A stretch of DNA of 32,000 bases from Sinorhizobium meliloti. GTDB lineage: Bacteria; Pseudomonadota; Alphaproteobacteria; Rhizobiales; Rhizobiaceae. A model generated the notes under the pieces. It had not been told where the DNA came from and made no database searches. It saw nothing but the letters and a program-made list of their open reading frames with translations. The stretch spans positions 810,001-842,000 of the forward strand of contig NZ_JAGIOS010000003.1 in NCBI RefSeq assembly GCF_017876815.1, read 5' to 3'. Shown here one piece after another: positions 12,927-21,927 of this stretch (its first letter is position 1; each line of letters begins with the position of its first letter). Made by a program: the position numbers and the translations under genes.

Positions 12927-14720
12927 GTGCTGTCGGGAATGTCGGCCGCACTGCGCCCGTTTGGCCCAGGTGGCGTTGGGCGGGACGAAGTCATCGGTCT
13001 CGTGTCGCTGGTACTCTGGACGCTGACCGCCATCGTGACCATCAAATATGTGCTCGTTCTGCTTCGGGCCGACAACGAGGGTGAGGGTGGCACTTTGTCC
13101 CTGCTCGCCCTGTTGCTGAAGAAGGGCACCAAATATCCGGTCCTCATGTTTTTTGCCGGCGTTCTAGGCGCCGCCCTGTTCATCGGTGACGCGATGATCA
13201 CCCCGGCGCTGTCGGTACTGTCGGCCGTTGAGGGTTTGAAGCTCGTCGCGCCGGCGCTTCACGACTACGTTCTGCCGATCTCCGTCGTGATAATCCTGCT
13301 GCTTTTTGCCGTCCAGTCACGCGGGACCGGTGCCGTTTCCGTCTTCTTCGGCCCGATCACGCTCGTTTGGTTTCTCGTGATGGCAGCTGCCGGCGTTGCG
13401 CATATAGGCGACGATCTGGCGATCCTTTCGGCTTTTAACCCGCTCAATGCGATCGGTTTTTTATGGAATGCCGGCCTCATCGGCTTTATCGTACTCGGCG
13501 CCATCTTCCTCACCGTGACCGGAGCTGAAGCGCTTTATGCCGATCTGGGCCATTTCGGTCGCCATTCCATCCAGGCAGCCTGGTTTGCGGTCGTCTTTCC
13601 CGCCCTCGCGTTGAACTATCTCGGGCAGGGCGCGCTGGTTTTGTCCCATCCCGATGCCATCTCCAATCCGTTTTTCCTGATGTTTCCAAGCTGGGCCTTG
13701 TTGCCGATGGTGATCCTTGCCACGGCCGCAACGATCATCGCCAGCCAGTCGGTGATCACCGGAGCCTTTTCGCTTATACGGCAAGCGATCCATCTCGGCT
13801 TCCTGCCCCGCTTCGAAATCTGCTACACCTCGGAAACGCAAACGGGTCAGATTTACCTGCCCTTGGTCAACACCATCCTTTTGACCGGTGTTCTCGCCCT
13901 CATGCTGATGTTCGGTAGCTCCGAAGCCCTTGCCCCCGCATACGGCGTATCCATTACGGGCGCGATGGTGATCGATACCATTCTCGCCTTCGAATTCGTT
14001 CGGCGCCAATGGGGCTGGCCCGCTTTGACAGCCATAGCTGTCCTGCTTCCCCTGTTCAGTCTCGAACTGGTCTTCCTCGGCGCCAATCTGTTGAAGGTTC
14101 ACCACGGGGGCTACGTGCCCATCCTCATCGCCGGCACCTTGATCACGATGATGTGGACCTGGCGGAAGGGTGTCAGCGTGCTGCGCGAGAAGACCGCCCG
14201 TCAGGACATCCCGCTGAGCCAGTTCATGGCCATAGTCGAACGAAAGTCCGAGCATGCTCCTGTCCAAGTCCCCGGAACAGCGATCTTCCTGACCGCCACG
14301 CCCGACACGACGCCGGCAGTTCTGTTGCACAACATCAAGCACAATCACGTCCTTCATCAGCACAACGTCATCATGACCATCAAGACCGCCCGGGTCCCTT
14401 ACGTGCCCGAGAAGGACCGCTACACAATTACAAAGCTGTCTGATCGGTTCAGCCTGCTGGAGCTGAGGTTCGGCTTCATGGACGATCAGAATGTCTCACG
14501 GGCGCTGGCGCGCTGTCGAAAGGAGGGTTTCAAGTTCGAGATCATGTCGACGTCCTTTTATCTCGGCCGGCGCAAGCTGATAGCCGACCCCCAGTCAGGG
14601 CTGCCCCAATGGCAAGACAAGCTCTTCATCGCCATGGCGGACTCGGCGATTGATCCAACCGAGTACTTTCATCTGCCAGCTAATCGAGTCGTCGAGCTGG
14701 GAGAGCAAGTCATTATCTAA
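12927..14720 (+). CDS. kup: KUP/HAK/KT-family potassium uptake protein, lacking the conserved N-terminus (possibly a pseudogene)
   Basis: 597-aa ORF from GTG 12927. Kup-family motifs throughout ([49 protein letters not shown]), plus a C-terminal cytoplasmic domain. The family-typical N-terminal GVVYGDIGTSPLY segment is not encoded in any frame upstream. There is an in-frame TGA at 12891-12893. Confidence 0.8.
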
Positions 14721-15102: not shown

Positions 15103-15656
15103 GATGCAGTTAGATCAGCTGTTGAAATCCCAAGAAAGCCGTAGATCGCGATCACGAGCAGGACGAGGACCAGCAGTAGAATGATTATCCTCGATCCTCT
15201 CTTGGCCATTCCGAGGTGCAATAAGAGTCTACAACTAGGTTTGAATAGGACTGAAGTCTAACGCCAAAGAGCTTCTGCAATCTCGGCCGGTCTGACAACC
15301 TCCCTCGTCCACCCCTTTTAATTATCCGACAGTTTCGCGCCGCGGAGCCCGGCTGGGACTGGCGGCCGCCGCTGCCGGTCCAGCGTGGGTTGATCAACAT
15401 TCCGCCCCTATCGATCCCTAACATTTCAGCGAATCACGTGAACCGCTTGCTTGCCTTATAGAGACGGCTCTCGGCCGTTACGAAGATGGAGCCGCTGCTC
15501 TTATGCTGTTTCGTAGGATGCACGGTGAGGCGGGTTAGCACTGTGCGACCCGCAGGCTTTAGCGGCTCGCCGTCCTTCTGCTCTGTTTAGAACTCGAAAT
15601 CATACCTGGACGCCCTAACTTCCATTCTCGTCTTCAATGTTGAACATCATCGAGAG

Positions 15657-17102
15657 GTGAACGTGGCAGAGCGCAAGAAGCAGACAGTGGTGAGCTCTGG
15701 TATCTCTGGGCTAGACGAAATCCTCCGCGGCGGCTTGCCAGCATCAAATCTCTACATCGTCCAGGGCGCACCGGGGTCGGGCAAGACGACCGCGGCGCTG
15801 CAATTCCTCCGCGCTGGTGTCGCGCTGGGCGAGCCCTGCATTTATGTCAGCCTGTCTCAGACCAGAGCCGAGTTGGAGGCGATCGCGCGGTCGCACGGCT
15901 GGACCCTCGATGGAATCCGCGTGGAGGAACTTTCCGCTTCAGATTCGATAAACCGGGCCGCCGACCAGACCATCTTCCAGACGACTGAACTCCGTCTGGA
16001 CGAGACGAGAAAAGCGATCGAAAGCGCAATCGAAGAGCATAAGCCGAGCCGATTGGTTTATGATTCCCTGTTGGAAATCCGGCTGATTACCGCCGATTCA
16101 CCCCGATTCCGACGCGAGCTGATCGCCTTCAAAGCGTTCCTCGCCCAGCGCAACATCGTGGCACTGTTGCTCGACACGCAAACCTCCGAGACGGATCGAA
16201 CGGGCGAAGAGGTCGACGGCATCGCCCACGGGGTCATTCGCCTGGACAAATCACTCGAAGAATATGGGGGCGTTCGCCGCCGCATTGAGGTGAGTAAGAT
16301 GCGTGGCGTTCCCGTCGCCGATGGCTATCACGACATGGCGATCCGCGAGGGCGAAGGCGTCGTCGTGTTCCCGCGAATCGTACCGGGTGCGGCGGCGAGA
16401 ACCGTCAAGCCGCAGCTGATCAAGTCGGGTGTCGATACTCTGGACGAAATGTTCGGCGGCGGGCAGGAATCGGGAACGACAACGCTCGTCATAGGCCAGG
16501 CGGGCACCGGTAAATCGACGATGGCGTCGCTCTATGCGACTGCAGCCCTCAAGCGCGGTGAAAGTGTTGGGCTCTTCCTGTTCGAGGAACGAATCGAGAC
16601 ATTCTTCCGGCGCTCCGAGGGGCTGGGAATGGCTCTGCGTCAGTTCCATGAGGATGGCCAGCTGATCCTCCGCGACTTCAATCCCAACGAGATCTCGCCG
16701 GGAGAGTTCGGCCAGATCGTCCAGCAATCGGTGAACAGTGAAAAGGTGAAGGTCGTCGTAATCGACAGCTTCACTGGATATTTGAATTCGCTGCCACATC
16801 GTGAGAAAGCGGTTCGCGACATACAGTCGCTCCTCAAATATCTCGCCCGGGCCGGCGTCCTCACGATTCTCATCGTCGCGCAACACGGTCTGCTCGGCCA
16901 GGGCGTAGGCATTGACGTCGATGTGAGCTTTCTGGGTGACACCGTGCTTCTGCTGCGAATTGCGGAACACGAGGGCAGGCTCCGGCGCAGCATCACGGTC
17001 GTGAAGAAGCGGCATGGCCCGCACGATCTCGATGTACGCGAATTGTTCATTCAAAGCTCGGGCGTCTCGGTGATCGCGTATAACCCGCTCCCGGAGGTGT
17101 GA
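15657..17102 (+). CDS. kaiC: KaiC-family double RecA-like-domain ATPase
   Basis: Two KaiC-type domains. Walker A GAPGSGKT and GQAGTGKS; Walker B RLVYDS and VVVIDS; KMRG and KKRHG motifs. GTG 15657 or, better spaced from GAGAGG, GTG 15663. Confidence 0.88.
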   Translation: MNVAERKKQTVVSSGISGLDEILRGGLPASNLYIVQGAPGSGKTTAALQFLRAGVALGEPCIYVSLSQTRAELEAIARSHGWTLDGIRVEELSASDSINRAADQTIFQTTELRLDETRKAIESAIEEHKPSRLVYDSLLEIRLITADSPRFRRELIAFKAFLAQRNIVALLLDTQTSETDRTGEEVDGIAHGVIRLDKSLEEYGGVRRRIEVSKMRGVPVADGYHDMAIREGEGVVVFPRIVPGAAARTVKPQLIKSGVDTLDEMFGGGQESGTTTLVIGQAGTGKSTMASLYATAALKRGESVGLFLFEERIETFFRRSEGLGMALRQFHEDGQLILRDFNPNEISPGEFGQIVQQSVNSEKVKVVVIDSFTGYLNSLPHREKAVRDIQSLLKYLARAGVLTILIVAQHGLLGQGVGIDVDVSFLGDTVLLLRIAEHEGRLRRSITVVKKRHGPHDLDVRELFIQSSGVSVIAYNPLPEV

Positions 17103-17108
17103 TCGCTC

Positions 17109-18152
17109 GTGGACGCGACCGACAGCCCTCTCGACTGGGTGTTGACGATGGCTCCTTATCGGCGCGACGCCGAGCATTTGGAAGCGCTCTTGGCCCAAAA
17201 TGGCTTGCCCGTCCGGCGCGCGGAGGGCGTGGAAGAGCTGACGGCGCTGTTGGAACAGGGTCCAGGAGTTCTTGTCGCGACCCACGAGGCGCTTAATCCG
17301 GAGGTCCTGGAGGTGATCCGCCGGTATTTGATCGACCAGCCTGAGTGGTCTGAGATGCCCCTCGTCATCCTGCTGGATCGCGCAGTGCCTCAGGCCCGCG
17401 TCCGCGCCGAGCTGTCGGCAGCCTGGCCCCGCTCACGCCAGCTCTATTACCAGCGTCCTGTCACCACGCTGGAATTGCTAAGCGGTATCCAGTCGATTCT
17501 GCTGGCGCGTCTGCGTCAACGCGACATACGCGATCGCATCGAGCGCGAGATCGAACTGCGACGCGAGCTCAACCATCGAGTAAAGAACATCTTGGCCAGC
17601 ATTTCCTCCATCTTCCAGATGACCCGGCGACGCGCTGTTTCACTCGATGAGTTCGCCGAAGATTTCGCGGGCCGGCTCGCGGCGCTTGCCAACGTACATT
17701 CGGCGGTCTTTCAGGCGGACGGTGAAGCGGTCGAATTCTCCAGCGTTGTTGAACTGACCTTCAGTCCATACCGAGTAAGAGGCACGGATCGCCTCGTCTT
17801 CACAGGTCCAACGGTCCTGCTGCGTCCGGATGCAGCGACCACGCTTGCGCTTTGCCTCCACGAGCTGGCGACCAACGCGCTCAAGTATGGTGCGCTCTCG
17901 ACACCAGAAGGCCGGGTCAGCTTGCAATGGTCCGTTTCGCAAGAGGCCGATCTGCTGAGCCTTGAATGGGTCGAGAGTGGAGGTCCGTCAGTGTCGGAGC
18001 CGTCGAGGAGTGGATATGGAACGCGGTACATCCGCTCGGCGTTGTCTAGTCAGTTTGGCACGCCGCCGGTCATCCTGTTTCATCCGCAGGGATTGCGTTG
18101 CATCGTATCGGGCCCGCTTTCGCGCGTATCACCGAGGCAGCCGGAGGTATAG
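17109..18152 (+). CDS. HWE-family sensor histidine kinase with N-terminal pseudo-receiver domain
   Basis: GTG 17109 with GGAGGTG 9 nt upstream. H-box LNHRVKNILASISSIF, N-box HELATNALKYGAL, W-x-E LEWVESGGP, G-box SGYGTRYI. The N-terminal roughly 125 aa have receiver-like alternation (VLTMAPYRRD, VLVATHEAL, PLVILLD) but no acidic pocket or phospho-Asp. No TM segments. Confidence 0.88.
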   Translation: MDATDSPLDWVLTMAPYRRDAEHLEALLAQNGLPVRRAEGVEELTALLEQGPGVLVATHEALNPEVLEVIRRYLIDQPEWSEMPLVILLDRAVPQARVRAELSAAWPRSRQLYYQRPVTTLELLSGIQSILLARLRQRDIRDRIEREIELRRELNHRVKNILASISSIFQMTRRRAVSLDEFAEDFAGRLAALANVHSAVFQADGEAVEFSSVVELTFSPYRVRGTDRLVFTGPTVLLRPDAATTLALCLHELATNALKYGALSTPEGRVSLQWSVSQEADLLSLEWVESGGPSVSEPSRSGYGTRYIRSALSSQFGTPPVILFHPQGLRCIVSGPLSRVSPRQPEV

Positions 18153-18163
18153 GAGATTAAGGT

Positions 18164-18553
18164 ATGGCTCCTTCCGTGTCGCCGTTGCGGATATTCTATC
18201 TCGAAGACAACCCGCTGATCGTCTTTCACATTGAGGCGATGATCGAGGATCTGGGGTATGTCTTTACAGGCTCCGCCAGCAGCTTCGCCGACCTGGTTGG
18301 CAGGATAGAGACGATCGAGGTCGACGGGGTGCTGGTAGATATCGATCTGGCCGATGGGCGCACCGGCCCGGCTGCCGCAAAGTGGCTTCGCCAGCGCGGC
18401 ATTCCAAGCATCTTTGTCACCGGACAGGAAGCGATCGCCGCTGAGTATCCGGAGACAGCGCTCGCAACGATAGGCAAACCGGTGTCGGAAAGCGAACTCG
18501 CCGAGAAACTAGAACTGTTTCGGCTCACCAGCTCCACCAGCAAGACGATCTAA
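18164..18553 (+). CDS. Single-domain response regulator (receiver only)
   Basis: 129 aa, with AGGAGA SD. YLEDNPLI (acidic pair), VLVDIDLADG (phospho-Asp), IFVTG, IGKPV (Lys). No output domain. Confidence 0.88.
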   Translation: MAPSVSPLRIFYLEDNPLIVFHIEAMIEDLGYVFTGSASSFADLVGRIETIEVDGVLVDIDLADGRTGPAAAKWLRQRGIPSIFVTGQEAIAAEYPETALATIGKPVSESELAEKLELFRLTSSTSKTI

Positions 18554-18575
18554 CAATTCATTGCCCTTTGGCTTG

Positions 18576-18607
18576 GGCGCCGCATCTCGCGATCAGTCGG
18601 CGGCGCC
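18576..18607. terminator. GC-rich stem-loop (GGCGCCGC ... GCGGCGCC, 16-nt loop) between the convergent response-regulator and cysA genes
   Basis: Read directly. No U-tract, so function is uncertain. Confidence 0.25.
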
Positions 18608-18923
18608 GCGGCATTCTGCTTCAGCCACTGCACCAAAATGGCCATCCGCAATCTGCTTGGGTCTGCACAGAAATTCCAACCGATCATCCCGGTCTTGCTT
18701 AAACTCCCTGGATGATCACCAGGAGGTACGACTCGAGGCGGGAAACTAGGCGCGACCTGGACGGTCTTCGACGTCTTTAGCGGGTTGTCGGCCATCCACC
18801 CCCACGATGAAAGGATGCTGGGAACTATCCGCATCGGAGGCGCACGAGCTGCTAGATCTGCTAAATTTGCAGACTGCCTTAAGTCCACGGCTTGAAATCG
18901 ACGTCATGAACGCTCCTCCCAGG

Positions 18924-19967
18924 CTACTCGCCACAAAACAGCTTCCACTTCGTGGGGCGGAGCGCGATACAGGTGCGGTCGGCCGAGGACGCCAGCTCGG
19001 GCGGCAACTCAACCTCGATCGACGACTGTGTCTTGCCGAGATCCAATTCGAGGTGGCGCGTGCCCGCTACACGCCGACTCGCCGTGACACGCCCGGCGAG
19101 ACAGCCACTGCCACCCTCAATGAGCTCGACGTCGTGCGGGCGGAAGAAGAGGGTTGCCTGCCCGTCCTGCTCGTTCGCGGCGCGAAGGCCGATTGGGCGA
19201 CCCTCGAACCAGATCTCACCATTGGCAAGCGTGACGTTGAGACAATTGGACTGACCGATGAAGCCGTAGACGAAAGGCGAGACGGGGTGATCGTAGATCT
19301 CGTCGGGGGTGCCGACTTGCTCGATCGCGCCCTTGCTCATCACTACGACGCGGTCGGCAAGCTCGAGTGCCTCTTCCTGGTCATGGGTGACGAAGAGGGT
19401 CGTGTACCCGGTGCGGTCGTGGATTTCGCGGAGCCACCGGCGAAGTTCCTTGCGAACCTGCGCGTCGAGCGCGCCGAAGGGCTCGTCGAGCAGCAGCACG
19501 CTCGGTTCGACCGCCATAGCGCGGGCGAGCGCCACCCGCTGCCGCTGGCCCCCAGAAAGCTGGGCCGGATAGCGTTTTTCGAGCCCAGAGAGCTGCACCA
19601 AGTCGATGAGGTCGAGCGCACGACGGCGGATCTCTGCGGCGGGCGGCCGCCGGTTGGCGGGCCGTACCTTGAGCCCGAATGTGACATTGTCGAGCACCGT
19701 CATGTGGCGGAACAGGGCGTAGTGCTGGAAGACGAAGCCGATATTGCGCTCCTGGACGGTCCTCTTCGATGCGTCCTCGTCGCCGAAGAAGATCATGCCC
19801 TCGGTCGGGCTTTCGAGGCCAGCAATTAGCCTGAGCAGCGTCGTCTTTCCTGAACCCGACGGGCCGAGGAGCGCAATCAGCTCGCCGGAGAGGATGTCGA
19901 GTGTGACGTCGACGAGCGCCGGGAAGCGGCCGAATTCTTTGCGGAGGCTCTCGACCCGGACTTCCAT
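18924..19967 (-). CDS. cysA: Sulfate/thiosulfate ABC transporter ATP-binding protein
   Basis: ATG 19967 ([15 protein letters not shown]); the ORF-track start at 20003 is TTG. Walker [10 protein letters not shown], signature [14 protein letters not shown], Walker [12 protein letters not shown]. CysA-type C-terminal regulatory/TOBE-like domain. Confidence 0.88.
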
Positions 19968-20048
19968 CTCTGTGCGCCTTTCAATGTCTTCGACCAGCCG
20001 CAAATCGTCACTGTCGCAAAGGCCAAATACGGCGCCGCCGAGCGCTGA

Positions 20049-21074
20049 CTATCGTCCGGGACTATAGATACGATCGAAGATACCGCCAGCGCCGAAGAAC
20101 TTCGGCTGAGCTTCCTTCCATCCGCCGAACTCGTCAATGGTGACCAGTGTGAGATCGGCGAAGCGGTCGATGTCCTTCTGATCCGCTGCCTCGGGCTTGA
20201 ACGGCCGATAGTAGTGTTTGGCGACGATCTTCTGCCCCACATCACTGTAGAGATAATTGAGGTAGGCTTCCGCCATCTTGCGCGTGCCCTTACGGTCGAC
20301 ATTGCCGTCGACAAGCGCCACCGGCGGCTCGGCTCTGATCGAAATCGAGGGCGTAACGATATCGAAGTTGTCGGGGCCGAGTTCTTCGAGCGCGAGGTAG
20401 GCTTCGTTTTCCCAGGCGAGCAGCACGTCGCCGAGACCGCGCTGGACGAAGGTGGTCATCGCTCCCCACGCGCCAGTGTCGAGAGCGAGAACATGCTTGA
20501 AGAGTTGCGCCACATATTCCTCCGCCTTGGCATCGTCGCCGTTGTTCGTCGCCCGCGCCCACGCCCAGGCCGCCAGGAAATTCCAGCGGGCGCCGCCCGA
20601 GGTCTTCGGGTTAGGCGTGATCACCTGGATGCCTTCCTTGGTCAGATCGCTCCAATCCCTGATGCCTTTCGGGTTACCCTTGCGGACGAGAAAGACGACC
20701 GTCGAGGTGTAGGGAGCGCTGTCGTTCTCAAGACGGGTTTTCCAATCAACAGGGATCTTGCCGGTGGCCTGCGCAATCGCGACGATGTCCGCTTCAAGCG
20801 CGAGCGTCACCACATCGGCGTTCAGGCCGTCGATCACCAAGCGCGCCTGCTTTCCGGAGCCGCCATGCGATGTCTGGATCGTCACCGTCTCGCCCGTATC
20901 CGCCTGCCATTTTTCGGCAAAGGCGGCGTTGAATTCCTTGTAGAGTTTCCGTGTCGAGTCATAGGACACGTTCAGGATCGTCGTGTCCGCCTGAGCGAGA
21001 CCGATATAACCGAGCTGCAGCATTCCGACCAGAAGAGCTCGTTTCACGACTTCGGCAAGTCTATCGGTTCGCAT
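20049..21074 (-). CDS. sbp: Periplasmic sulfate/thiosulfate-binding protein (Sbp/CysP)
   Basis: ATG 21074 is preceded by AAGGAGG. Signal peptide ...LLVGMLQLGYIGLAQA. Sulfate-binding-protein motifs (NVSYDSTRKLY, TSHGGSGKQARLVIDGLNADVVTLALEADI, NPKTSGGARWN). Confidence 0.88.
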   Translation of the reverse strand: MRTDRLAEVVKRALLVGMLQLGYIGLAQADTTILNVSYDSTRKLYKEFNAAFAEKWQADTGETVTIQTSHGGSGKQARLVIDGLNADVVTLALEADIVAIAQATGKIPVDWKTRLENDSAPYTSTVVFLVRKGNPKGIRDWSDLTKEGIQVITPNPKTSGGARWNFLAAWAWARATNNGDDAKAEEYVAQLFKHVLALDTGAWGAMTTFVQRGLGDVLLAWENEAYLALEELGPDNFDIVTPSISIRAEPPVALVDGNVDRKGTRKMAEAYLNYLYSDVGQKIVAKHYYRPFKPEAADQKDIDRFADLTLVTIDEFGGWKEAQPKFFGAGGIFDRIYSPGR

Positions 21075-21633
21075 ATCAACCTCCTTGCTTAGCTGGATGA
21101 AACTACCCCCCGAACGCCAGACGGGAAAGCCGAGATGGAGGCGATTGTGCGGCGCCCGTGCGCAATGTGCCATACGTGATCGGCGCGCTCAAACTCGCTT
21201 TTCCTGCGCATGGAATTTGGCAAGCCGATTGAGCGACGAAGCGACCGATCCGGAAGGTGGAACCACCGGCATCCATCGTGCGATTATCGGATGGTGGCGC
21301 CTAGAGAACATGGTGCTGGAGCCGCTCTTCAAGCCGACTGATTGATTGAAAGGGTGCGATTGTCTTATCTGCAGCGACGCCTCAGGCCCATGGGGTAAGC
21401 CCCCGGGGTCTGTATCGAACTTGATTGCAGGGATAATCGGTTGAGGCGCGGCTATGTCCGGATGGTCGGAGAGCTTCACGATCGTCGGCTGGCTTGAGGC
21501 CATGATGGCGCGCCGTCTCTGCACGTCAGCTCCGGCCAGAAAGATTGCCGGAGCGGCCGGGGACCCTCATTCTTCACCCGAAGCGGCCCGGCAGGCGCGG
21601 GAACAGGTTGCCACCAACCGCAGCTTCACTGCT

Positions 21634-21825
21634 TTAAGTCTTGTCGACAGCGCCTTTAACTGCGTCCTTTAACTTTCCCTTGGCTTGCTGGGCACCGCCC
21701 TTTGCCTCTTGCGCTGCGCCTTTGGCGCGGAGCGAGTTGTTGTCGGTTGCATCGCCCGCGGCCTTCTTGGCCTTACCAGCGAGCTCATTGGCCTTGCCGG
21801 CCACTTTGTCCTTTGCACTGCCCAT
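21634..21825 (-). CDS. csbD: CsbD-family general stress protein
   Basis: 63 aa from ATG 21825: MGSAKDKVAGKANELAGKAKKAAGDATDNNSLRAKGAAQEAKGGAQQAKGKLKDAVKGAVDKT. The sequence is typical of CsbD-like proteins. Confidence 0.8.
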   Translation of the reverse strand: MGSAKDKVAGKANELAGKAKKAAGDATDNNSLRAKGAAQEAKGGAQQAKGKLKDAVKGAVDKT

Positions 21826-21874
21826 GGGGGTCTCCCGGTTTGGAGGACGCGACTTGCGCCGCCACAGACGCTCG

Positions 21875-21900
21875 AACGAGCGGCTCGGCGCTTTTGTTCC
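21875..21900 (-). promoter_or_regulatory. EcfG/RpoE2-type general-stress promoter (GGAAC-N17-CGTT) upstream of csbD
   Basis: The minus strand reads GGAAC aaaagcgccgagccgct CGTT. On the plus strand this is GTTCC at 21896-21900 and AACG at 21875-21878. The -10 element ends 49 nt upstream of the csbD ATG. Confidence 0.55.
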
Positions 21901-21927
21901 CACTTGATCTGGATCAGCCAGCACGCA

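Follow-up and report, generated by a model that had tools for sequence, protein, structure and literature searches.

KaiC homologues are widespread outside cyanobacteria, and what they sense and by which route they signal is an open question, stated as such in a study of Pseudomonas (Terrettaz et al.; bioRxiv 10.1101/2022.01.26.477890). The same question is posed by a stretch of 32,000 nucleotides of Sinorhizobium meliloti DNA (NZ_JAGIOS010000003.1, positions 810,001 to 842,000; the window), in which a two-domain KaiC-family ATPase/autokinase (gene 1), an HWE histidine kinase (gene 2) and a stand-alone receiver (gene 3) are encoded one after the other. To what is a KaiC-like protein connected where no KaiB-like sequence accompanies it? 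We describe the N-terminal domain of gene 2 as an unannotated pseudo-receiver that is strictly coupled to the KaiC-like ATPase, and we propose that the state of the ATPase controls the kinase by direct contact, a claim to which we give slightly better than even weight.

A pseudo-receiver kinase and its KaiC-like neighbour

A profile of the pseudo-receiver was searched against one genome per species (GTDB), which gave 80 loci, all of them alphaproteobacterial (Rhizobiaceae, Phyllobacteriaceae, Devosia, Bosea, Methylobacterium, Labrys, Chelatococcus, Lichenihabitans, Sphingomonadales and Caulobacterales). A KaiC-like gene (73–96% identity) lies directly upstream of the kinase on the same strand in 80 of 80. 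The pseudo-receiver was found only fused to HWE kinases, and always beside a KaiC-like gene with the S-Q and S-F residue pairs described below.

Gene 2 is an HWE histidine kinase. Residues 153–234 match HWE_HK (PF07536) with 89 bits against a cut-off of 22.8 (E = 3.5e-25), residues 148–338 align with the catalytic core of Brucella LOV-HK (5epv/6ph4; E ~3e-27), and the family signature (H156, with H251 and W287-x-E289 in the CA domain) is invariant throughout. Residues 1–138 and the N-domains of 19 homologues gave no Pfam match, and PF00072 was not matched even at E<=10 (20 of 20). A profile of these 20 N-domains gave weak matches in the PDB (E 0.009–1), nearly all of which were receiver domains; A15-P16 stands in the place of the acidic pair, T58 in that of the phospho-Asp, L89 in that of the Thr/Ser and R116-P117 in that of the Lys-Pro. 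The AlphaFold2 model of the N-domain displays (beta-alpha)5 topology at moderate confidence (predicted local distance difference test, pLDDT, of 75.4), and a Foldseek search of the PDB with this model returned almost exclusively receivers (PhoP, PhoB, CheY and RpaA-REC among others; E from 3e-4, template-modelling score 0.58–0.67). We class the domain as a pseudo-receiver because the modelled fold is that of CheY-like receivers but the catalytic quintet and the Pfam match are absent. An earlier note on this DNA, made from the letters alone, had described a soluble HWE kinase with a receiver-like N-domain lacking the acidic pocket and the phospho-Asp; the fold and the residues A-P and T58 agree with that description, and the position of a normal phospho-acceptor Asp is taken by T58.

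In the full-length AlphaFold2 model (pLDDT 81.5), a single helix (residues 120–173) carries alpha5 of the pseudo-receiver unbroken into DHp helix 1, which bears H156, and DHp helix 2 comprises residues 179–202. Such a geometry would allow direct mechanical coupling. Within the N-domain, the invariant positions are concentrated in the beta1-alpha1, beta3-alpha3, beta4-alpha4 and beta5-alpha5 loops, which form the former active-site face. A 2025 review of pseudo-receivers was restricted to domains detectable with PF00072 (PMC12632262), and the gene 2 domain would therefore have escaped it.

Gene 1 matches the KaiC family (PF06745) twice (E = 2.9e-74, 249.8 bits against a Pfam cut-off of 26.6). 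A phmmer search of the PDB aligned residues 12–471 with full-length KaiC structures at E values down to 1e-46 (residue numbers of gene 1 follow the 481-residue form that starts at 15657). The lysine of each Walker A motif and the aspartate of each Walker B motif are in place, and GSGKT, GTGKS, D136 and D370 are invariant in 80 of 80 orthologues. With its tandem PF06745 domains and Walker A/B motifs, gene 1 belongs to the KaiC/RecA-like ATPase superfamily. In the CI-like domain, 'yvSLSQt' is aligned with 'fvTFEEs' of KaiC, so that E77/E78 correspond to S67/Q68; in the CII-like domain, 'lflfEEr' is aligned with 'lfafEEs', and the Glu pair is retained as E310/E311. At the phosphosite, 'idvdvSFlgdt' is aligned with 'tdshiSTitdt', which makes S424, F425 and I419 the equivalents of S431, T432 and T426, respectively. 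The alignment stops at residue 471 (KaiC 478) and the protein at 481, without an A-loop or C-terminal tail. The earlier note had compared gene 1 with S. elongatus KaiC, and its account survives alignment to the solved structures: S-Q in CI and E-E in CII, the Ser431 equivalent kept with Phe for Thr432, and an end shortly beyond the core (some ten residues by the alignment) with no KaiA-binding tail. The structure-guided alignment places no intact Glu pair in CI and does place a Ser at the phosphosite.

Could gene 1 instead be a RecA-, RadA- or GvpD-type ATPase, concerned with repair, gas vesicles or phage defence, that stands beside a two-component system by chance? Weak P-loop matches to RecA, RadA, DnaB and GvpD were obtained with Pfam and NCBIfam, some annotations call the gene 'gvpD', and PADLOC gave a weak mad8 match that is confined to the P-loop. 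Against this stand the full-length two-domain KaiC alignment at E 1e-46, the adjacency of the kinase in all 80 loci with frames that overlap or nearly do so, and the lack of gas-vesicle, repair or defence genes nearby. We regard a chance neighbour of this type as barely credible, and the defence-system reading was rejected, the PADLOC search being negative beyond the mad8 match.

Membership of the KaiC family also raises the idea of a self-sustained or KaiB-dependent circadian oscillator with kaiB and further partners elsewhere in the genome, of which only 32 kb are visible here. Gene 1 lies far under the NCBIfam cut-offs of the circadian KaiC equivalogs (231.5 against 408 bits for PRK09302; 141.8 against 546.25 for TIGR02655). 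The CI glutamates, which KaiB engagement requires, are lost, as are T432, T426 and the A-loop. A tblastn search with a KaiB sequence as query found no KaiB-like sequence in the window, where the earlier note had likewise reported no kaiB, or in the 80 orthologous loci; Terrettaz et al. found no KaiB in 1255 Pseudomonas genomes (bioRxiv 10.1101/2022.01.26.477890). An oscillator is thus very unlikely. Judged by its score, its CI Glu pair, its S431/T432 and T426 positions, its missing tail and the lack of a KaiB-like match in the loci searched, gene 1 is not a bona fide circadian KaiC.

Gene 3 is, by its residues, a bona fide and complete receiver. It matches Response_reg (PF00072) with 40.8 bits against a cut-off of 30.2 (E = 2.8e-10), and its catalytic set (E14-D15, D59, T86 and K105) is invariant in 56 of 56 homologues. 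NCBIfam returned PRK13435-type and PhyR-family matches, and the nearest solved relatives are PhyR REC domains, SdrG and S. meliloti Sma0114 (E 1e-9 to 1e-6), in keeping with the receiver-only regulator that had been read from the DNA. The profiles expected for the cassette (KaiC, HWE_HK and Response_reg) were therefore matched in genes 1, 2 and 3, respectively.

Conservation and relatives of the cassette

Among the 80 loci, S-Q in CI, E-E in CII and S-F at the phosphosite of the KaiC-like protein are each found in 80 of 80, and A15, P16, T58, E60, R116, P117 and H156 of the kinase are invariant (79 of 79). The synteny and co-occurrence proposed in the earlier note are borne out to this extent. 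The median distance from the gene 1 stop to the gene 2 start is ~8 nt, and the two genes overlap in some species. A gene 3-like receiver directly follows the kinase in 56 of 80 loci; the other ~24 have a different receiver (e.g. loci L020, L065 and L077 of our survey) or none. Within the top 120 clusters, the KaiC-like proteins are all at least 81% identical (Rhizobium, Agrobacterium, Labrys, Bosea, Microvirga and Tsuneonella), and the kinases, N-domain included, are conserved over their full length at 58–91% identity. Orthologues are at least 81% and paralogues at most 45% identical, with almost nothing between. From this gap, the pseudo-receiver HWE kinase is judged to be a discrete alphaproteobacterial variant. 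Median identity is 83% for the KaiC-like protein as against ~60% for the kinase and the receiver; a constraint on the KaiC-like protein so much stronger than that on its partners fits a hexameric hub.

On plasmid pAt of Agrobacterium fabrum C58 (L086; NC_003064.2 88566-91057), the last 4 nt of the KaiC-like gene ATU_RS24370 are shared with the kinase gene ATU_RS24375. The annotation shows no receiver behind them, a 1.1-kb gap being left without annotation, and a second KaiC-like match lies on the same plasmid.

The genes around the S. meliloti cassette (kup, cysA, the sulfate-binding protein gene, csbD and an acyl-CoA dehydrogenase gene) are syntenic with it in no other species examined, and for that reason the unit is best described as a mobile cassette of two to three genes, often plasmid-borne.

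The substitutions in gene 1 extend well beyond this cassette. A HMMER search of 50%-identity cluster representatives gave 811 clusters at E<1e-30, and residue pairs were counted in the 119 nearest full-length representatives (31–59% identity). The CI pair is S-E in 38, S-Q in 26, A-E in 12 and E-E in only two, which leaves no ground for taking S-Q as a hallmark of this architecture. The phosphosite pair is S-Y in 71, S-F in 16 and T-Y in six, and the median C-terminal tail is ~30 residues as against ten in gene 1. Across these representatives, lost CI glutamates and a lone Ser/Thr that precedes an aromatic residue thus appear as traits of a large KaiC-like clade and not of this operon specifically. 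Adjacency to a kinase is likewise general: paralogues (~42% identity) on plasmids of Sphingomonas, NT-25 and Caballeronia adjoin PAS or hybrid kinases, and in distant Acidobacteriota, which made up most of the returns of a profile search aimed at the Pseudomonas group I proteins, a co-oriented hybrid kinase adjoins the KaiC-like gene. KaiC-like gene followed by kinase is, in the loci compared, the rule of the wider clade. On plasmid 3 of the arsenite-oxidising NT-25 (L087; LR723679.1 62073-69564), the gene of a large PAS-domain protein precedes the paralogous KaiC gene, which has apparently been split from the downstream sensor histidine kinase gene by insertion of an IS21 element (transposase and helper ATPase).

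The nearest published systems are those of Pseudomonas (Terrettaz et al.; bioRxiv 10.1101/2022.01.26.477890). The KaiC-like proteins of this genus form three groups, with T-Y or S-Y at the phosphosite in group I and S-S in group III, and outside Pseudomonas the closest relatives of groups I and III are found in Rhizobiales. The genes lie 'virtually always' beside a histidine kinase and sometimes beside a single-domain response regulator. Self-interaction of KaiC and its interaction with the kinase were detected by two-hybrid assay and co-immunoprecipitation, and for KaiC binding in P. putida the PAS domain at the N terminus of the kinase suffices. Pseudomonas KaiC is phosphorylated in stationary phase, with a dependence on growth phase, and kaiC deletion gives osmotic, oxidative and sulfur-starvation phenotypes; the CI catalytic residues are not discussed. 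The S. meliloti cassette shares with these modules a two-domain KaiC homologue, the absence of KaiA and KaiB, an adjacent co-oriented kinase and a single-domain regulator without DNA-binding domain in the same cluster (56 of 80 here, 'sometimes' there). The phosphosites, compared by description, are alike in pairing Ser/Thr with an aromatic residue (S-F here, S-Y/T-Y in group I). The kinases differ, being short, soluble and of the HWE type with an N-terminal pseudo-receiver here and PAS or hybrid kinases there, and the EPS-sortase and CsrA neighbours of Pseudomonas are absent around the S. meliloti cassette.

Two gene clusters are known from Methylobacterium (Methylorubrum) extorquens AM1, kaiC1-kaiB2-kaiB1-kaiR1 and kaiC2-kaiR2 (Iguchi et al. 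2018 as summarised in PMC8069551). In the passages of that summary that concern KaiC2, a single Ser, S426, is phosphorylated, the phosphorylation falls with temperature, and kaiC2 deletion raises UV and heat resistance and impairs leaf colonisation (PMC8069551). Like the S. meliloti cassette, kaiC2-kaiR2 is an alphaproteobacterial KaiC system with no adjacent kaiB, and S426 there corresponds to S424 here (S422 when counted from 15663). Cassette orthologues occur in four Methylobacterium species (L023, L055, L059 and L064), with KaiC-like proteins ~83% identical and the Ser numbered 421–429 depending on the start codon. The same passages on kaiC2-kaiR2 mention no pseudo-receiver, dead CI ring or receiver partner (PMC8069551).

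Comparison with the Synechococcus elongatus clock shows the same double RecA-like ring with the CII autokinase residues (equivalents of E318/E319 and S431) kept. SasA and CikA read the KaiC state through a non-catalytic N-terminal adaptor, as we propose for gene 2, and both CikA and KaiA have pseudo-receivers. Unlike the clock, the cassette lacks KaiA, KaiB, the CI Glu pair, T432, T426 and the A-loop and tail, its ATPase scores far below the equivalog cut-offs, and nothing points to oscillation. The pseudo-receiver here sits on an HWE kinase and would need to touch KaiC directly and not through KaiB. The KaiBC hourglass of purple bacteria (Rhodopseudomonas palustris and Rhodobacter sphaeroides, also Alphaproteobacteria) shows KaiA-independent KaiC autophosphorylation, and the R. 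sphaeroides KaiC structures (8dba/8fwi) align with gene 1 over the full length at E ~1e-33; those systems retain KaiB as well as CI glutamates and an extended C-terminal coiled coil, none of which is found with gene 1. Other HWE- and PhyR-linked signalling takes its input through a PAS, LOV or transmembrane sensor, whereas here a KaiC-like ATPase and a pseudo-receiver stand in that position.

The earlier note had held that the architecture has no established mechanism. The novelty implied by that view is not supported, as KaiC-like, histidine kinase and response regulator modules without KaiB were already published for Pseudomonas; the general design has been described there and probably also in Methylobacterium. 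A literature search on KaiC with HWE and on KaiC with S. meliloti returned nothing specific to this S. meliloti operon. New here are a pseudo-receiver family that has gone unannotated and is tied strictly to a KaiC-like ATPase, the invariance of a single-Ser site together with a CI ring predicted to be dead, and the extracytoplasmic function (ECF)-type promoters in several lineages.

Proposed wiring of the cassette

In the mechanism that we propose, the cassette would be self-contained, with the hexameric KaiC-like ATPase as input or state-holding element and the HWE kinase as its direct read-out. The CI-like ring would bind ATP, its Walker A/B motifs being intact, and would hydrolyse it poorly because S-Q replaces the catalytic Glu pair; in S. 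elongatus KaiC, the exchange E77Q/E78Q abolishes CI ATPase activity. This ring would serve for structure or docking and not, as in cyanobacteria, as a slow ATPase that gates KaiB binding. The CII-like ring, in which E-E is kept, would autophosphorylate and dephosphorylate the single Ser S424 with no need for KaiA, since the inhibitory A-loop and tail are absent. Such KaiA independence is suggested by S. elongatus KaiC truncated at residue 487, which is hyperphosphorylated independently of KaiA, and is supported by M. extorquens KaiC2, in which one Ser is phosphorylated, and by the homologues in Pseudomonas. The state of the hexamer, in phosphorylation or bound nucleotide, would follow growth phase, energy charge or temperature and would be sensed via the pseudo-receiver; KaiC binding would shift the kinase/phosphatase balance through the alpha5-DHp helix because alpha5 is continuous with the phospho-His helix. 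The kinase would then exchange phosphate with the FATGUY-like receiver, or with another receiver where gene 3 is absent, and the receiver would tune a stress phosphorelay, for which the general stress response of PhyR/NepR/EcfG (RpoE2) is the most plausible candidate. The docking role of CI, the state input, the contact surface on the pseudo-receiver and the general-stress output are steps that we infer for the S. meliloti system, and each is held with less confidence than control by contact itself. The KaiA/KaiB-independent phospho-switch read out by a kinase that the earlier note had put forward remains the best reading and its logic holds, although its novelty had been overstated.

Several observations weigh against this proposal. 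The hydrolysis deficiency of CI is predicted from residues, and both the KaiC-kinase interaction and the phosphorylation of gene 1 are predictions for S. meliloti by analogy. The kinase domain that binds KaiC in Pseudomonas is a PAS domain and not a pseudo-receiver. The receiver stands outside the invariant core and is not essential to it, a gene 3-like protein being absent from ~24 of the 80 loci. M. extorquens KaiC2 is a probable orthologue of gene 1, as inferred from the Methylobacterium comparison. On the output side, no strict EcfG motif (GGAAC-N16-17-CGTT) lies upstream of gene 1 in the window, the proximity of csbD to the cassette is conserved in no other species, no open-access paper linking KaiC with PhyR/EcfG was found, and the supplements of general-stress regulons that were searched contain no KaiC or 'circadian' entry. 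Finally, the genomic data fix the partnership and not the direction of signalling (KaiC to kinase or kinase to KaiC).

The wiring could therefore run the other way, with the kinase and receiver as sensors and the KaiC-like ATPase as an effector that acts on, for example, a LabA-like factor or transcription. The kinase might, for instance, govern how the ATPase assembles, is phosphorylated or hydrolyses ATP. LabA is placed downstream of KaiC2 in the M. extorquens passages of PMC8069551, and Pseudomonas KaiC also contacts the response regulator (bioRxiv 10.1101/2022.01.26.477890). Yet the pseudo-receiver is the only recognisable sensor domain of the kinase, the KaiC-like proteins carry no output domain, and the order KaiC then kinase is invariant, with KaiC the most conserved component. 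In cyanobacteria, moreover, information runs from KaiC to the kinases SasA and CikA. We consider reversed wiring unlikely.

It is similarly improbable, in our estimate, that the pseudo-receiver senses a small molecule or phospho-ligand while KaiC, with no phospho-switch, only assembles or sequesters the kinase as a scaffold or chaperone-like ATPase. In favour of this, the pocket of the former phospho-acceptor, possibly a ligand pocket, is lined by invariant N-domain residues, and ligand-binding pseudo-receivers are documented (PMC12632262), with c-di-GMP on the ShkA pseudo-receiver and quinone on those of CikA and KaiA as analogies. However, 80 of 80 loci keep the Ser of the phosphosite, the Glu pair of CII and the two Walker motifs unchanged, which argues that CII chemistry matters, and M. 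extorquens KaiC2 S426A fails to complement according to the same passages of PMC8069551.

Control of the kinase by the KaiC state leaves room for a more specific and rather speculative version, in which the pseudo-receiver would be a new KaiC-docking domain family whose remodelled pocket reads the phospho- or nucleotide state of the hexamer or takes a phosphoryl group on T58; we rank it as a tentative idea that is probably incorrect in this form. The pocket residues Y17, R18, D20, T58, H59, E60, D90, R91 and R116 are invariant. If true, this version would link a Ser/Thr autokinase ring directly to His-Asp signalling, and alphaproteobacteria would own a KaiC-based timer of stress duration, or of energy or temperature, that feeds the general stress response.

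The subfamily offers a clean test system, with a minimal soluble kinase whose sole input domain is a pseudo-receiver, a single-Ser phosphosite and, as predicted, a naturally dead CI ring, and the partnership is strictly kept in tractable plant-associated bacteria (S. meliloti, A. fabrum C58, Methylobacterium and Sphingomonas). Transmission from KaiC to kinase, once shown, would clarify how the output wiring of the cyanobacterial clock evolved from simpler switches. The cassette could also add a new input branch to alphaproteobacterial stress signalling.

Operon, promoters and neighbouring genes

The cassette sits on a pSymA-type megaplasmid. Positions 1293248-1296548 of pSmeSM11c in strain SM11 are 99.9% identical to the window, and pSymA of strain 2011, at ~1.16 Mb, shows 99.2% identity with it. 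Two S. meliloti megaplasmid records, CP130046.1 and CP130052.1, match the window only at 18343-18700, which takes in the 3' part of gene 3 and the spacer behind it; a deletion has apparently removed the cassette from a few strains, which suggests that it is accessory within the species.

The three open reading frames (15657-17102, 17109-18152 and 18164-18553) all lie on the + strand and are separated by 6 nt (17103-17108) and 11 nt (18153-18163), as the earlier note had it. We take them as real genes and not chance frames because all three are conserved across many species. Each is preceded by its own Shine-Dalgarno-like sequence (GAGAGG at 15652-15657, GGAGG at 17093-17097 and AGGAG at 18151-18155 for genes 1, 2 and 3, respectively), and the short gaps and common orientation bear out an operon. 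For gene 1, the Prokaryotic Genome Annotation Pipeline (PGAP) and the 479-residue homologues place the start at GTG 15663, a correction of 15657 that also gives better spacing from GAGAGG. Table 1 lists the features discussed.

Table 1. Window coordinates of the features of the cassette and its surroundings, with the basis of each assignment.
Feature	Position	Strand	Basis or remark
Gene 1, two-domain KaiC-family ATPase/autokinase	15663-17102	+	479 aa from GTG 15663 (481 aa from GTG 15657)
Gene 1 CI Walker A GSGKT	15774-15788	+	codons checked
Gene 1 CI S67-Q68, replacing E77-E78	15855-15860	+	alignment to KaiC structures
Gene 1 CII Walker A GTGKS	16503-16517	+	codons checked
Gene 1 CII E310-E311	16584-16589	+	alignment to KaiC structures
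Gene 1 I419 (T426 equivalent)	16911-16913	+	alignment to KaiC structures
Gene 1 S424-F425 (S431-T432 equivalents)	16926-16931	+	alignment to KaiC structures
Gene 2 N-terminal pseudo-receiver, residues 1-119	17109-17465	+	profile search, AlphaFold2, Foldseek
Gene 2 HWE histidine-kinase core	17466-18152	+	Pfam HWE_HK, Brucella LOV-HK alignment, AlphaFold2
Gene 2 T58 (phospho-Asp position)	17280-17282	+	profile alignment to PDB receivers
Gene 2 phospho-His H156	17574-17576	+	HWE family signature, codons checked
Gene 3, stand-alone receiver, 129 aa	18164-18553	+	Pfam Response_reg
Gene 3 phospho-Asp D59	18338-18340	+	complete catalytic set
Gene 3 FATGUY-like motif PSIFVTGQ	18404-18427	+	partial match to PFxFATGY(G)
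Degenerate ECF-type promoter-like element AGAAC-N17-CGCC	15589-15614	+	upstream alignment by eye
csbD, CsbD-family gene, 63 aa	21634-21825	-	ATG start agrees with PGAP
Strict EcfG/RpoE2-type motif GGAAC-N16-CGTT, GGAACAAAAGCGCCGAGCCGCTCGTT	21875-21900	-	ends 50 nt upstream of csbD ATG

A stress-response output of the cassette is plausible, not established; ECF-type motifs upstream of the KaiC-like gene and the SdrG/PhyR-like receiver are the reasons for considering it. Seven of 79 species have a strict GGAAC-N15-18-CGTT motif upstream of the KaiC-like gene. The form GG[AC]AC-N15-17-CGTT occurs 56–101 nt upstream of the KaiC-like start in 13 of 79 species, with 11 different sequences among them; the background frequency is 0.7% per 150 nt. 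In S. meliloti, the AGAAC-N17-CGCC element is homologous in position to the strict GGAAC-N16/17-CGTT found upstream of the orthologous operons of Rhizobium, and as a functional promoter it is a weak candidate. The motif-bearing taxa are Rhizobium, Neorhizobium, Labrys, Sphingomonas, Sphingopyxis and Shinella; the GGAAC form was seen at loci L004, L005, L008, L009, L011, L012 and L016 and the GGCAC form at L006, L010, L014, L015, L017 and L018. The GGCAC variant of the sphingomonads differs from the textbook EcfG -35 element.

A further GGAAC-N17-CGTT inside gene 2 (18018-18043, +; 120 nt upstream of gene 3) was rejected as an internal promoter, as it encodes the conserved HWE motif GTRYIRSAL. 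It recurs at the same codons in 12 of 56 other species and is most likely, given its coding context, a by-product of coding constraint.

The earlier note had drawn attention to a nearby csbD gene with an EcfG-type promoter. The strict motif is indeed present (Table 1); the link to the cassette is circumstantial, csbD not being syntenic elsewhere. A longer alternative frame of 96 aa that starts at GTG (21634-21924) appears in the list of open reading frames and would engulf this promoter. Functional links of the cassette to csbD, the sulfate transporter or kup were considered and rejected, since none of these genes is syntenic with it elsewhere.

At 18924-21173 (-), a cysA-like gene for the ATPase of a sulfate/molybdate ABC transporter and a gene for a sulfate-binding protein converge on the cassette. 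A kaiC mutation in P. protegens affects sulfur uptake, but the juxtaposition of these genes with the cassette looks coincidental, as they are not syntenic elsewhere. Upstream, a Kup-type potassium transporter (12927-14720, +; 597 aa, GTG start) ends ~0.9 kb before the cassette, a position that is not conserved, and its reading frame is followed by a 430-nt intergenic region.

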